DNA of 9,578 bases from assembly GCA_964595665.1 (NCBI GenBank), contig CAZQQS010000012.1:1-9578 (forward strand), written 5' to 3'. The notes under the pieces were generated by a model, which was not told where the DNA came from, made no database searches, and was given only the letters and a program-made list of their open reading frames with translations. The position numbers were made by a program, and so were the translations under genes. The stretch is from an uncultured archaeon. GTDB lineage: Archaea; Iainarchaeota; Iainarchaeia; Iainarchaeales; 0-14-0-20-30-16. Each line of letters opens with the position of its first letter. The stretch's first letter is position 1. Below are positions 5,782 to 9,578 of the stretch, one piece after another.

Positions 5782-5797
5782 TATCTAAATATAGTGT
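5782..5797. promoter_or_regulatory. Candidate NrdR box 1 (TATCTAAATATAGTGT)
   Basis: 12/16 match to the NrdR-box consensus acaCwAtATaTwGtgt as I recall it. The right half is perfect and the left half weak. It lies between the TATA box and the predicted TSS. Confidence 0.45.
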
Positions 5798-5812
5798 TTT
5801 AGAAATATTAAA

Positions 5813-5828
5813 ACACAACAGGTTGTGT
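5813..5828. promoter_or_regulatory. Candidate NrdR box 2 (ACACAACAGGTTGTGT)
   Basis: 13/16 match to the consensus. It is the core of a perfect palindrome, AACACAAC-AG-GTTGTGTT (5812-5829). Its centre is 31 bp from the centre of box 1, and it ends 4 nt before the nrdR ATG. Confidence 0.5.
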
Positions 5829-5832
5829 TGAT

Positions 5833-6276
5833 ATGCTTTGTCCATTTTGTAGTTCTGAAGAGTTGAGCGTTGTAGATAAAAGAGATGTATCTGAAGGTTT
5901 AATTCGTAGAAGAAGAGAATGTTTGAAATGCAAGCAAAGATTTACAACTTATGAAAAAATTGGGGATGTTGATTTCTTTGTAATTAAGAAAGATGGTTCT
6001 CGAGAAAGATTTGATAAAGAGAAAATTAAACGAGGCATAATATTAGCATGTAAAAATAGGCCCGTAACTATTGAACAAATTGAGTCTTTAATTTCTAAAG
6101 TTTTACAAGATATTAAACAAGAAGGAAATATGGAAATTGAATCTGTAAAAATTGGTAGCAAAATATTAAAACTATTAAAAAAATTAGATGAAGTTGCATA
6201 TATTAGATTTGCATCAATTTACAAATCATTTAAAGATTTGGAAGATTTTAAAAAAGAGATATTTAAATTGGAGTGA
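5833..6276 (+). CDS. nrdR: Transcriptional repressor NrdR (Zn-ribbon plus ATP-cone)
   Basis: N-terminal Zn ribbon MLCPFC...RRRECLKCKQRFTTYE, then an ATP-cone (VIKKDGSRERFDKEKIKRGI...AYIRFASIYKSF). Length of 147 aa and position directly upstream of an RNR gene are both typical. Confidence 0.9.
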   Translation: MLCPFCSSEELSVVDKRDVSEGLIRRRRECLKCKQRFTTYEKIGDVDFFVIKKDGSRERFDKEKIKRGIILACKNRPVTIEQIESLISKVLQDIKQEGNMEIESVKIGSKILKLLKKLDEVAYIRFASIYKSFKDLEDFKKEIFKLE

Positions 6277-6284
6277 TTACTATG
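6270..6284 (+). promoter_or_regulatory. Stop-in-Shine-Dalgarno coupling junction GGAGTGATTACTATG (nrdR stop, nrdJ start)
   Basis: GGAG lies at 6270-6273, the nrdR TGA at 6274-6276, and after an 8-nt spacer the nrdJ ATG is at 6282. The first 10 nt are identical to the trkH/trkA junction. Confidence 0.6.
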
Positions 6285-8447
6285 ATTTCAAAAGTTAAAA
6301 AAAGAACTAACGAATTTGTTGATTTTAATAAAGAAAAAATAAAATTGGCTATAAATAAAGCATTTGTTTCGATTAATGAAGAACCAAAAGATATTGATGT
6401 TTTGGTAGACGCAGTTATTAAAGAATTGGAATTAAAAAAATATGAAACTCCAAGTGTAGAAGAAATTTCTGATTGTGTTGAAACTGTTTTAATGAATAAG
6501 CATCCAGCTGTAGCTAAATCTTTTATAATTTATAGAGAATATAAAAGACAATTAAGAGATGTAAGAAAAATTTATATGGGTACAGAAGAAAATAATAATT
6601 TATCATTAAACGCATTAAAAGTTTTAGAAGCAAGATATTTATTAAAAGATATAAATGGAAAAGTAATTGAAACTCCAAATCAATTATTTGATAGAGTTGC
6701 AGAACACATAGTAAAAGCAGATAAAAAAAGATTAACTAATGGAAAATATAAAGAATTAAAAGATGATTTTTATAATATGATGTTTAATTTAGATTTCTTA
6801 CCTAATACCCCAACATTAATGAATGCTGGAACTGAATTAGGACAATTAAGTGCATGTTTTGTTTTACCAGTTGGAGATTCTATTTCAGAAATTTTTGATT
6901 CTGTAAAACATACAGCAATAATTCATAAGAGTGGTGGGGGAACAGGATTTTCTTTTTCGAGAATAAGATCTAAAGGAGAAATAGTTAAAAGTACAAAAGG
7001 AGTAGCTTCTGGTCCAATTTCATTTATGAGAGTTTTTGATGCAGCAACTGAAGTTATAAAACAAGGTGGCAAGAGAAGAGGAGCAAATATGGGTATATTA
7101 AGAGTAGATCACCCAGATATTTTAGAATTTATTTCTTGCAAACAAACAGAAGGACAAATATCTAATTTTAATATCTCTGTTGGTATTACAGAAAAATTTA
7201 TGAATGCTGTAGATACAAATTCAGAATATGATTTAGTAAATCCAAAAGATGGAGAAGTAGTTAATAGATTAAATGCAAGAAGTGTATTTGATTTTATTAC
7301 AAATTATGCTTGGCAAAATGGTGAACCAGGAATAGTTTTTTTAGATGAAATTAACAAACATAATCAAGTTGCTAATGTAGGTGTAATAGAAGCAACAAAT
7401 CCTTGTGGAGAACAACCATTATTACCTTACGAATCTTGTAATTTAGGATCTATAAATTTAGCAAATTTTATAATTGAAGAAAATAAAATTGATTGGAAAA
7501 GATTAGAAAAAATTATAAGATTGGCAGTAAGATTTTTAGATAATGTAATTGAAGTAAATAAATATCCTTTACCACAAATTGATAGTATGACTAAATCAAG
7601 TAGAAAAATTGGTTTGGGTGTAATGGGTTGGGCTGATTTATTATTACAATTAAAAATTCCATATAATTCAGATGATGCAATTTATTTGGCTGAAAAAGTT
7701 ATGAAATTTATTAATGATACTGGTGTAGATGAATCTGTAAAATTAGGTGAGGAAAAAGGAAACTTCCCTGCATTCAAAGGAAGTTATTGGTCTGAGCAAG
7801 GTTATAAATATATGCGAAATTCTACAATTACAACAATTGCTCCAACTGGAACAATAGGGATTATAGCAGATACTTCTGGTGGAGTTGAGCCACAATTTTC
7901 TTTGGCCTATACTAGAGTTAGTTTAGATAATCAAGAATTAATTTATACTAATAAATATTTAGAAAGAGAATTAAAGAAAAGAGGATTCTTTACAGAAGAT
8001 ATTATGGTAAAAATCTCTAAAACTGGTTCTGTTGTAGATGTTGAAGAATTACCAGAAGATATTAAAAAAGTATTTGTTACATCAAGAGAAATTTCTCCAG
8101 AATGGCACATAAAAATGCAAGCAGCATTTCAAAAATACACTCATAATGCAGTATCTAAAACAATAAATATGCCTTTTGAAGCAACTATTGATGATGTAAA
8201 ACAAGCATATTTTTTAGCTTATAAATTAGGTTGTAAAGGTATAACAATTTATAGAGATGGTAGTAGACAAATACAAGTATTAACTTCTGGAACAAGTAGT
8301 AAAAAAGTTGTTGAAGAACCCAAACCTATACAAAAATTAATTACAAAAGAATTGCCTAAAGATGAGTGTCCAATATGTCATAGTAAAATGCACGCTCAAG
8401 AGGGCTGTTATACATGCACAAAATGTTCATATTCTAAGTGTTCTTAA
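6282..8447 (+). CDS. nrdJ: Class II (adenosylcobalamin-dependent) ribonucleotide reductase NrdJ, with N-terminal ATP-cone and C-terminal Cys-rich tail
   Basis: GGGTGFSFSRIR, KQGGKRRGANMG, the thiyl-radical loop ATNPCGEQPLLPYESCNLGSINL, and ISPEWHIKMQAAFQKYTHNAVSKTINMP with GCKGITIYRDGSR are hallmark class II RNR blocks. There is no radical-generating subunit or activase gene nearby. The N-terminus KVKKRTNEFVDFNKEKIKLAINKAF is ATP-cone-like. The tail is CPICHSKMHAQEGCYTCTKCSYSKCS. I prefer ATG 6282 to the track's GTG 6273. Confidence 0.9.
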   Translation: MISKVKKRTNEFVDFNKEKIKLAINKAFVSINEEPKDIDVLVDAVIKELELKKYETPSVEEISDCVETVLMNKHPAVAKSFIIYREYKRQLRDVRKIYMGTEENNNLSLNALKVLEARYLLKDINGKVIETPNQLFDRVAEHIVKADKKRLTNGKYKELKDDFYNMMFNLDFLPNTPTLMNAGTELGQLSACFVLPVGDSISEIFDSVKHTAIIHKSGGGTGFSFSRIRSKGEIVKSTKGVASGPISFMRVFDAATEVIKQGGKRRGANMGILRVDHPDILEFISCKQTEGQISNFNISVGITEKFMNAVDTNSEYDLVNPKDGEVVNRLNARSVFDFITNYAWQNGEPGIVFLDEINKHNQVANVGVIEATNPCGEQPLLPYESCNLGSINLANFIIEENKIDWKRLEKIIRLAVRFLDNVIEVNKYPLPQIDSMTKSSRKIGLGVMGWADLLLQLKIPYNSDDAIYLAEKVMKFINDTGVDESVKLGEEKGNFPAFKGSYWSEQGYKYMRNSTITTIAPTGTIGIIADTSGGVEPQFSLAYTRVSLDNQELIYTNKYLERELKKRGFFTEDIMVKISKTGSVVDVEELPEDIKKVFVTSREISPEWHIKMQAAFQKYTHNAVSKTINMPFEATIDDVKQAYFLAYKLGCKGITIYRDGSRQIQVLTSGTSSKKVVEEPKPIQKLITKELPKDECPICHSKMHAQEGCYTCTKCSYSKCS

Positions 8448-8453
8448 TACGAG

Positions 8454-8508
8454 CCTTTTGAAAAGCCTCCGTCAGCCAAAAGGTATGTTTCGCTATGCTC
8501 AAGCATAC
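8454..8508. repeat. Intergenic hairpin element, copy C, with an extra upstream hairpin
   Basis: Upstream hairpin CCTTTTG-N16-CAAAAGG (8454-8460 / 8477-8483). The core at 8483-8508, GTATGTTTCGCTATGCTCAAGCATAC, is 22/26 identical to 67-92. A competing inner hairpin TATGC-TCAA-GCATA lies at 8494-8507. The region 8445-8512 is 30/68 G+C (44%, hand count). T-runs follow at 8515-8519 and 8525-8529. Confidence 0.5.
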
Positions 8509-8542
8509 GAACACTTTTTATATGTTTTTGGGTATTATACTT

Positions 8543-9061
8543 ATGAAAGAAATTGAAGTTAAGATTTTGGAAATTGATAAAAAGAAAATAGAATTAAAGC
8601 TTAAGAAATTAGGTGCTAAAAAAATATTCTCTGGAAAATTGGTATCTTATTTCTTTGATACTAAAACTAATTCTTTAAAATCTAATGATATGCAATTAAG
8701 ATTAAGACAAAGTAAGTTGGGAACATTATTAACTGTTAAACAAAAGATATCTCAAACAGAAACAAAAAATTCTAATGAATATGAAATTGAAGTTTCTGAT
8801 TTTAATGAAACTAAAAAGATATTAAGTTTATTAGGTTTTAATCAAAAATATAAATTAGAAAAAAATAGAATTTCTTATATTTTAAAGGATGTAAGATTTG
8901 AATTGGATAAACCAAAAGAAAAAGTGCCTTGTTTTATTGAGATCGAAGCTAAAGATAAAAAAACTGTTGAAAAATACGTAAAACTCTTAGGTTATAAAAT
9001 GTCTAAAACAAAAAATTTAACATATAGAGGAGTTTTAAGACATTATGGAGTTTTAAGATAA
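8543..9061 (+). CDS. CYTH-domain protein (triphosphate tunnel metalloenzyme; CyaB/ThTPase family)
   Basis: N-terminal ExExK signature MKEIEVKIL, then the alternating charged beta-strand motifs of the CYTH tunnel: LRLRQ, LTVKQK, EYEIEV, RFELDK, FIEIEA. I prefer ATG 8543. The track's start at 8495 would translate through the hairpin element and the TATA-like tract ctttttatatg (8514-8524). Confidence 0.8.
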   Translation: MKEIEVKILEIDKKKIELKLKKLGAKKIFSGKLVSYFFDTKTNSLKSNDMQLRLRQSKLGTLLTVKQKISQTETKNSNEYEIEVSDFNETKKILSLLGFNQKYKLEKNRISYILKDVRFELDKPKEKVPCFIEIEAKDKKTVEKYVKLLGYKMSKTKNLTYRGVLRHYGVLR

Positions 9062-9067
9062 TGGAGT

Positions 9068-9578
9068 GTGATTATAATATTAATTATAAACACAGGCGAC
9101 GGAAAGGGTAAAACAACTTCCGCTTTAGGAATAATGTTAAGATCTTTAGTTTTAGGAAAAGAAGTTTTATTAGTTCAATTTATGAAACCAGAAAAAGAAA
9201 AAAGTATTTTGTTTTTAGAAAATGCTTTTTCGAATTTTAAAAGTGTAAATTATGGTATTTCTGAATTTATTAAAAAAGGAAGTGTTCCAAAAGATTTAGT
9301 TATGATTTGCAAATATGGTTTTGAAACTCTAAAGAAAACTTATGTTGGAAAAGATTTAATTGTTGTTGATGAAATATTTGCTGCAATTTATTTTGGTTTA
9401 ATAGAGGAACAAGAAGTTTTACAATTTACTAAACAAATAAAAGATCAAGTGGATTTGGTATTTACTGGAAGAAAATGTTCACATGATTTTATTGATTTAG
9501 CTGATATAGTAACAGATATGCGTGCTACAAAACATCATTATGAGAAAGGAATTCAAGCTAAAGAAGGAATAGATTACT
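9068..9578 (+). CDS. cobA: ATP:cob(I)alamin adenosyltransferase, CobA/CobO/BtuR type (3' end beyond the window)
   Basis: Absent from the ORF track because it is open to the window edge. My translation from GTG 9068 is VIIILIINTGDGKGKTTSALGIMLRSLVLGKEVLLVQFMK...LIVVDEIFAAIYFGL...DLVFTGRKCSHDFIDLADIVTDMRATKHHYEKGIQAKEGIDY. The P-loop GDGKGKTT, VQFxK, VxDE, TGR and T(E/D)M...KH...G..A..GI blocks are characteristic of CobA. The start codon is uncertain because no in-frame ATG precedes the P-loop. Confidence 0.8.
   Translation, partial: MIIILIINTGDGKGKTTSALGIMLRSLVLGKEVLLVQFMKPEKEKSILFLENAFSNFKSVNYGISEFIKKGSVPKDLVMICKYGFETLKKTYVGKDLIVVDEIFAAIYFGLIEEQEVLQFTKQIKDQVDLVFTGRKCSHDFIDLADIVTDMRATKHHYEKGIQAKEGIDY

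Follow-up and report, generated by a model that had tools for sequence, protein, structure and literature searches.

The 9,578-nt stretch at positions 1 to 9,578 of contig CAZQQS010000012.1 (assembly GCA_964595665.1, from an uncultured archaeon of the Iainarchaeota), analyzed here over its full length and referred to as the window, carries in its 3′ third a same-strand series of four genes: nrdR, nrdJ, a gene for a CYTH-family protein and a gene for a CobA-type corrinoid adenosyltransferase. A preliminary description of this DNA had read the last two as candidate partners, with the CYTH protein hydrolyzing the inorganic triphosphate (PPPi) that CobA releases. We favor, at a rough probability of 0.6 for the reading as a whole, an arrangement in which NrdJ, a class II ribonucleotide reductase (RNR), and CobA are the functional core of the cluster and the CYTH protein is a separate phosphatase in a variable slot between them, not an obligate partner. 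The earlier interpretation stood as regards the identities of the proteins, the triphosphate tunnel metalloenzyme (TTM) signature of the CYTH protein, the PPPi preference of its closest solved relative and the release of PPPi by CobA. The dedicated partnership largely failed in the genome comparison, as no fusions were seen in the homologue clusters and concatenated-query matches checked, the adjacency is confined to one shallow clade, and CobA is no commoner near CYTH than a control gene. The genes and the junction in question are as follows.

5833..6276, + strand: nrdR, transcriptional regulator with Zn-ribbon and ATP-cone, 147 aa (TIGR00244, 170.8 bits against a cut-off of 124.65; PF22811, PF03477).
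6273..8447, + strand: nrdJ, class II adenosylcobalamin-dependent RNR, 724 aa, overlapping nrdR by 4 nt (NF006417, TIGR02504, Pfam).
8543..9061, + strand: stand-alone CYTH/TTM protein, 172 aa, predicted metal-dependent inorganic tri/polyphosphate phosphohydrolase (PF01928, alignment, AlphaFold2 model, Foldseek).
9059..9067, + strand: TAA stop of the CYTH gene (9059-9061) and 6-nt spacer TGGAGT; CYTH and cobA are in a common frame but separate.
9068..9578, + strand: CobA-type adenosyltransferase open reading frame (ORF), GTG start, running to the window end (PF02572; aligned to 1g5r and 4hut; relatives 167 aa).

The gap between nrdJ and the CYTH gene is 95 nt and that between CYTH and cobA is 6 nt. 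The adenosylcobalamin-dependent RNR that had been described upstream of the pair was borne out, since NrdJ passed the equivalog models NF006417 (983.4 bits, cut-off 961) and TIGR02504 (741.2 bits, cut-off 399.95), and it has the RNR barrel, all-alpha and ATP-cone domains of Pfam.

The reading is carried by gene order in what we call the home clade, i.e., the contexts of nine lineages whose CobA proteins are 58-90% identical to that of the window. NrdJ followed by CobA was kept in all nine. The order NrdJ-CYTH-CobA was found in five (the window, L001/2, L003-5, L006-8 and L173/4), NrdJ directly adjoins CobA with no CYTH gene in three (L169, L171/2 and the P0093 contig), and in one, L170, a methyltransferase gene occupies the slot between nrdJ and cobA. 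The idea that this methyltransferase is a relocated copy of the one encoded at 154-873 of the window was rejected, as the two have no significant similarity. The flanks recurred wherever contigs reach, with TrkH-TrkA-S8e located 5′ of nrdJ and U32 peptidase-Metallophos located 3′ of cobA. Because it is in the slot in only five of the nine lineages, CYTH is conserved less than any other part of the block. In a NrdJ tree (685 columns) the lineages with CYTH form a paraphyletic group, for which the simplest history is an ancestral CYTH insertion followed by at least two losses; a neighbor-joining tree placed the CYTH protein of L173 with the window clade at only 47.5% bootstrap, with independent recruitment into the slot as the alternative. 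A more distant relative with the same block, L029, has its CYTH gene 6.5 kb away on the opposite strand, and the P0008 contig ends 21 nt 3′ of CYTH. Outside the clade, NrdJ lies immediately 5′ of CobA in three of 80 CobA loci (L102, L110 and L133, all distant metagenome loci), and the two are also paired in L175. Since the pair recurs without CYTH (L169, L171/172, P0093, L102, L110, L133), NrdJ and CobA make up a robust module. The adjacency of CYTH and CobA does exist but is restricted by lineage and dispensable.

The preliminary description had further taken the CYTH and cobA genes to be joined in-register. The coordinates were confirmed, with the stop TAA at 9059-9061 followed by TGG AGT and then by GTG 9068 in the same frame, but the register did not prove to be a meaningful feature. 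In the five CYTH-containing lineages the gaps between the two genes are 6, 84, 83, 5 and 8 nt, and a common frame is seen in two of these five, against an expectation of one in three; the in-register arrangement is thus no more than chance. TAA is an ordinary stop here, terminating seven of the ten window genes and being the commonest stop among them, and with neither frame nor gap conserved, read-through or recoding of TAA 9059 was ruled out. The cobA gene of relatives begins at an ATG that corresponds to ATA 9077-9079 in the window, where GTG 9068 is the sole canonical in-frame start 5′ of the P-loop, so that GTG 9068 is a substitute start specific to this lineage. The relatives were also checked for a single CYTH-CobA fusion polypeptide, and none was present among 87 CYTH matches or among the 120 of 213 CobA matches listed. 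When a concatenated CYTH and CobA query was run against 1.84 billion representatives, the best 150 of 5315 matches (at least 96 bits) covered one half only; a fusion protein about 35% identical to the query in each half would be expected among these best 150. The 83-84-nt spacers of L001 (10520-10603) and L003 (10541-10623) begin with the first ~30 nt of cobA in degenerate form, ATGTTAATAATAAACACAGGA..., followed by the inverted repeat CACAAAAA...TTTTTGTG. The structure, which the window, L006 and L173 lack, resembles the scar of a small insertion or duplication.

The adjacency was also followed in a wider survey, which covered 80 species-representative CYTH loci (1.05 Mb; homologues 35-47% identical; a gene is counted as near when within 8 kb) and 80 metagenome CobA loci (0.59 Mb). 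The pairing was found in 3 of the 80 CYTH loci and 1 of the 80 CobA loci, to be set beside five of nine home-clade lineages. All three CYTH loci belong to one lineage with the order CobA-transaldolase (TAL)-CYTH-YchF; the single CobA locus is L140, in which the two genes are divergent. The count of three for CobA near CYTH equals that of the PyrG control and lies below those of TAL (4) and NrdR/NrdJ (5), the latter being the highest of the window-derived control families tested; S8e, ThrRS and TrkA were near CYTH once each. In this second lineage it is the transaldolase gene, not CobA, with which CYTH is tightly spaced (6-26 nt). L175, its fourth member, has NrdJ-CobA followed by TAL-CYTH-YchF, the two groups being separated by a toxin-antitoxin pair encoded on the opposite strand. 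The CobA of this lineage is 30-33% identical to that of the window, so that its co-localisation with CYTH and that of the home clade are probably independent. A single CobA-linked CYTH subfamily joining both lineages found no support in the CYTH tree or in these CobA identities and was discarded. With L140, this makes three probably independent co-localisations of CobA and CYTH. These events are few, heterogeneous in arrangement and no commoner than those of control genes, and the genomes do not indicate a dedicated CYTH-CobA coupling. A PduO-type adenosyltransferase was likewise sought near CYTH with a regular expression for the conserved N-terminal motif, a search of limited sensitivity that gave no match in the ORFs of 168 loci.

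Other neighbors of the two families were more frequent. PPK1 and a CHAD/metallophosphoesterase/Ppx protein, each near CYTH in 14 loci of Bathyarchaeia (Pfam-verified), were the commonest. In this polyphosphate cluster CYTH is followed on the same strand by PPK1 and a large CHAD/metallophosphoesterase/Ppx-GppA protein, as in L030 (9353-11518) and L058 (12299-14863); with about 12 other Bathyarchaeia loci it is the most frequent conserved context of the CYTH family. Among DPANN archaea the commonest neighbors were Nop5, in 10 loci, and fibrillarin, in 9. CYTH is there immediately 3′ of Nop5 and/or 5′ of fibrillarin (about 10 loci among L009-L088, e.g., L015 and L086), and thus lies inside the usually contiguous C/D-box small nucleolar ribonucleoprotein gene pair. 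Around CobA, genes of adenosylcobalamin clients predominated, with the large subunit of methylmalonyl-CoA mutase (12 of 80 loci), its B12-binding subunit (11) and a MeaB-like protein (11), names that were assigned from the sequences by eye, without a Pfam run.

The CobA-type identity was upheld by a PF02572 match of 148.8 bits (cut-off 25.7) spanning profile positions 5-172 of 172, and the protein aligned with residues 30-196 of Salmonella enterica CobA (1g5r) and 25-191 of the 4hut chain (E 1e-18). Relatives have 167 aa and the C-terminus ...GIDY. Because the last codon in the window, TAC 9575-9577, matches the C-terminal Tyr196 of the S. enterica protein, the ORF is probably complete but for its stop codon. 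The nucleotide-binding motif is located as follows.

9095..9118, + strand: CobA P-loop G10-D-G-K-G-K-T-T17, aligning with GNGKGKTT of S. enterica CobA.

Across 76 CobA homologues, G10, G12, G14 and K15 of the P-loop are invariant. The window protein thus has in common with S. enterica CobA and Escherichia coli BtuR (1G5R, 4HUT) the PF02572 fold family, the GxGKGKTT P-loop, the conserved QF.K, DE, TGR and KH positions and an alignment that reaches the C-terminal Tyr. It differs from S. enterica CobA in lacking an N-terminal stretch of ~25 residues (the N-terminal helix) and the Phe91/Trp93 pair, which aligns with Ile64/Glu66, with a Phe three residues on (GxxxF in the subfamily consensus), and in scoring under the NCBIfam equivalog cut-offs (TIGR00708, 123.9 against 167.75; NF004637, 130.3 against 185). 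The alignments place it in a short, divergent subfamily of PF02572. Its gene also differs in setting, as it adjoins the nrdJ block, not a cob operon. The CobA proteins of the second lineage (L085 6458-7042; L175 2452-3057; L050 83-565) have an insertion of ~25 residues with four cysteines, e.g., VECKNQ...GYCRDCF, that is absent from both the window CobA and S. enterica CobA and could be a metal- or cluster-binding site.

The assignment of the upstream protein to the CYTH family was likewise confirmed, with a PF01928 match of 76.5 bits (cut-off 23.2). Its start is likely ATG 8543 (MKEIEVK) because M1 is nearly invariant across 82 CYTH homologues; gene callers chose ATG 8522 too (P0001), and the 172-aa form gave no exact record in the look-up, where the identical protein is recorded as the longer 179-aa call P0001. 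Three motifs define its type.

8549..8563, + strand: ExExK signature E3-I-E5-V-K7, with no HF motif ahead (sequence, alignment, motif rules of PMC8233210).
8699..8707, + strand: RxR motif R53-L-R55, preceded by Gln51, with both Arg retained (TTM type) and no aromatic (not thiamine triphosphatase type) (sequence, alignment, motif rules).
8939..8947, + strand: C-terminal ExE metal-binding motif E133-I-E135, which is ExA in cyclases (sequence, alignment, motif rules).

In the alignment of the 82 homologues E3, E5, K66, E79, R109, E133 and E135 are invariant, and K7, R53 and R55 are at least 90% conserved. The AlphaFold2 model (pLDDT 96.6, pTM 0.88) has the eight-stranded beta-barrel tunnel fold with a C-terminal plug helix, and a Foldseek search against the PDB returned as best matches the closed complexes of SaTTM with PPPi (TM 0.79), together with other TTM, thiamine triphosphatase and class IV adenylate cyclase structures. 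SaTTM (Saci_0718 of Sulfolobus acidocaldarius, PDB 7NS8/7NS9, PMC8233210) is also the best PDB sequence match (E 7.5e-10), and like the window protein it is a single-domain archaeal protein of ~170-180 aa with ExExK, RxR and ExE. The two differ in that identity is only ~29%, that the DxY water-positioning motif of SaTTM (D38/Y40) is apparently unconserved, the window protein having S-Y-F (in a HMMER alignment whose N-terminal register is uncertain), and that the window protein comes from a mesophilic, AT-rich DPANN lineage. NeuTTM of Nitrosomonas europaea and E. coli YgiF, both specific inorganic triphosphatases, have the superfamily and the predicted chemistry in common with it, but sequence similarity to them is remote and YgiF is only a fold match. 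SaTTM is ~19-fold more active on PPPi than on nucleoside triphosphates (NTPs) and forms no cyclic nucleotides (PMC8233210). Judging from its motifs and from the behavior of SaTTM, the window protein most likely hydrolyzes PPPi or short polyphosphate. Two of its relatives, P0269 and P0231, carry a second domain, a CTP-dependent riboflavin kinase (PF01982) and a nucleotidyltransferase (PF14907/PF09970); CobA was in no case the fusion partner. Scans of viral contigs with the CYTH and CobA alignments found no relatives.

Databases suggest another function, as the homologues carry the source names ‘class IV adenylate cyclase’ or ‘adenylate cyclase class 2’ and would accordingly be CyaB-like enzymes making cAMP. 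TIGR00318 (cyaB) is indeed the best NCBIfam match and the Yersinia pestis class IV cyclase structures are good fold matches (TM 0.80); however, the TIGR00318 score of 54.7 bits is below the cut-off of 57.95, and the discriminating motifs speak for the other side. Class IV cyclases have HFxxxxExExK, ExA replacing ExE and a small residue at the first Arg of RxR, and thiamine triphosphatases are marked by W/YxRxR (PMC8233210). In the window protein ExExK is not preceded by HF at a distance of four residues, even in the longer upstream reading ...GIILMKEIEVK; the protein keeps both Arg of RxR and has ExE, and Gln51 stands in place of the aromatic (QLRLR). On these motifs the protein classifies as a TTM-type phosphohydrolase and not as a class IV adenylate cyclase, and a cAMP-forming activity is highly improbable. 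Since the motifs, the sub-cut-off cyaB score and the SaTTM-like fold agree, and SaTTM itself, which is similarly mis-annotated as an adenylate cyclase, makes no cyclic nucleotide, the cyclase names of these archaeal homologues are very probably wrong.

We thus picture the source of the window as an AT-rich (26% GC) DPANN-type archaeon with an nrdR-nrdJ-cyth-cobA series, presumably followed by a U32 peptidase gene as in relatives. CobA would turn salvaged or inactivated cobalamin into the adenosylcobalamin required by NrdJ. The CYTH product, a separate and catalytically intact-looking TTM phosphohydrolase, would cleave PPPi or short polyphosphate to PPi and Pi by a two-metal mechanism as in SaTTM, and its gene between nrdJ and cobA would be a lineage-specific, repeatedly lost passenger of a conserved syntenic block. 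If it is a triphosphatase, it would clear the PPPi released by CobA incidentally, like PPPi of any other origin. CYTH is best taken as a housekeeping TTM phosphatase in a variable slot of one sub-clade. Several points weigh against this reading. CYTH lies exactly between two functionally linked genes, and the order NrdJ-CYTH-CobA persists although CYTH has diverged to ~50% identity (L173). In the window, L006 and L173 no more than 5-8 nt separate the CYTH and cobA genes, a spacing that suggests a single transcript with co-translation of the two. The three co-localisations slightly exceed a rough random expectation that, as the ratio of locus length to genome size, would be well below one event in 80 loci, and sampling was limited to 80 + 80 loci, many on short contigs.

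Several of these points also favor the partnership that had been proposed, in which CYTH is a dedicated inorganic triphosphatase that removes the PPPi of CobA, relieves product inhibition and pulls adenosylation forward for NrdJ. The idea is chemically sound, as it combines TTM-type motifs and a SaTTM-like fold with a neighbor that, by the account of Fonseca 2002 cited in PMC10449867, both releases PPPi and is inhibited by it; this citation also supports the statement of the preliminary description that CobA-type enzymes release PPPi. The same logic has been used in an engineered cell-free B12 synthesis, to which E. coli inorganic pyrophosphatase was added because PPPi inhibits CobA (PMC10449867), although that system works in vitro, with millimolar by-product, and is not a natural TTM partnership. 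The source of PPPi for TTM enzymes is, moreover, stated as unknown (PMC3440374), in agreement with what had been said of it as an open question. The narrow spacing of 5-8 nt, the retention of the arrangement in five lineages with CYTH identity down to 50%, and the proximity of CobA and CYTH in the second lineage, probably an independent case, and in L140, where they are divergent, all point the same way. Against this stand the four of nine home-clade lineages whose slot is without CYTH and the NrdJ-CobA pairs of L102, L110 and L133, likewise without it; the failure of CobA to exceed controls near CYTH, and the single CobA locus of 80 that CYTH adjoins; the absence of fusions from the best 150 concatenated-query matches and the homologue clusters checked; the coupling of CYTH in the second lineage to transaldolase and YchF, with a toxin-antitoxin pair between CobA and CYTH in L175; and the lack of a PduO-type motif near CYTH loci in the limited-sensitivity search. 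CobA is reportedly inhibited by PPPi from ~1 mM upward (PMC10449867), cofactor-level adenosylation in a tiny cell would yield only micromolar PPPi per generation, and ordinary pyrophosphatase hydrolyzes PPPi too. We therefore regard a dedicated triphosphatase as unlikely, and slightly less likely still the fuller version, in which CYTH was recruited as the dedicated scavenger of PPPi from a CobA-type enzyme that serves the class II RNR, in the DPANN clade and independently in the second archaeal lineage. The preliminary description had added that no CYTH-CobA functional pairing was known, and the literature searched agrees, with no paper that ties TTM/CYTH proteins to corrinoid adenosyltransferases.

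CYTH might instead be tied to RNR or nucleotide metabolism as part of an NrdR regulon, and not to CobA. Its substrates might then be NTPs, for example, or the PPPi that dNTP triphosphohydrolases release. Of the 80 CYTH loci, 5 have an NrdR/RNR gene within 8 kb, and NrdR-box-like sites precede the window cluster. A bacterial metagenome-assembled genome (L082, 8001-12289) has CYTH-NrdR-NrdJ-dCTP deaminase in a single orientation and lacks CobA within 8 kb, and in L088 CYTH is ~0.7 kb 5′ of an ATP-cone protein; these two loci hint at a weak proximity of CYTH to RNR in which CobA has no part. The counts are small, however, and partly reflect shared synteny; in L029, L037 and L039 the genes lie on opposite strands at a distance of 4-6.5 kb, the other 75 loci are without RNR, the cluster is without a dNTPase gene, and the NTPase activity of SaTTM is only weak. 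This link is weaker than PPPi scavenging, based as it is on even fewer cases, and we consider it rather improbable.

The core pair of NrdJ and CobA has familiar counterparts. PduO is encoded in pdu operons and EutT in eut operons. Such clusters, together with those of methylmalonyl-CoA mutase, MeaB and an adenosyltransferase, co-encode a client with its cofactor-activating enzyme, as NrdJ-CobA does in all nine home-clade lineages and in L102, L110, L133 and L175. The window differs from them in that the client is a ribonucleotide reductase, the adenosyltransferase is CobA-type, and an extra CYTH gene stands between the two in one sub-clade. The CYTH-CHAD/polyphosphate clusters offer a further comparison, in which the Bathyarchaeia relatives sit with PPK1 and the CHAD/Ppx protein and from which the window CYTH differs in having no CHAD domain or neighbor. 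Neither protein stands out within its known family, and NrdJ-CobA is a known kind of organization.

Upstream of the cluster, a candidate control region was found just 5′ of nrdR.

5782..5828, + strand: two NrdR-box-like palindromes, 31 bp apart (sequence reading and pattern search).

The first palindrome (5782-5797, TATCTAAATATAGTGT) has 4 mismatches, as judged by eye; the second (5813-5828, ACACAACAGGTTGTGT) has 3 and was found by a pattern search in which 0.43 matches were expected by chance, so that the pattern match alone is weak evidence. The 31-bp spacing agrees with the known tandem arrangement of NrdR boxes. The pair is a probable operator of the nrdR cluster, and its position directly 5′ of nrdR suggests autoregulation of nrdR-nrdJ. 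A scan of 8300-9578 for bacterial-type promoters and terminators gave nothing beyond the shuffled expectation, with models that are bacterial and a host that is archaeal. The NrdR itself is bacterial-style, encoded by an archaeal (DPANN-type) genome. In sister lineages nrdJ is split by inteins, one or two in number, that carry LAGLIDADG endonuclease domains (L170 612-5270; L171 2745-5987), giving products of 1552 aa and 1080 aa; the window nrdJ has none.

The window as a whole has a GC content of 26.4% over its 9.6 kb and encodes the archaeal markers ribosomal protein S8e and aTrm56, as well as TrkH/TrkA, a HIT protein and a methyltransferase. Between Trm56 and TrkH lies a 305-aa ORF without Pfam match (2051-2968, - strand), and the relatives L001/L002 keep at this position a 303-aa ORF that is likewise without one. 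The HIT-family ORF (843-1292, TTG start as listed) overlaps the methyltransferase ORF (154-873) by 31 nt, and its real start is probably further downstream.

A CYTH-CobA partnership, if true, would point to a definite origin within the cell of the PPPi used by TTM enzymes, whose physiological substrate pool is still called unknown (PMC3440374, PMC8233210), and B12 cofactor activation would gain an accessory step. The finding offers a reasonable basis for hypotheses and is not a discovery. The placement of CYTH illustrates how, in a shallow clade, conserved synteny can resemble functional coupling. For the protein family, it is almost certain that the ‘class IV adenylate cyclase’ names of these archaeal proteins are wrong and that they are TTM phosphohydrolases. 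For the organism, the NrdR-NrdJ-CobA module indicates that genome-reduced DPANN archaea retain a self-contained activation of salvaged B12 for DNA-precursor synthesis.

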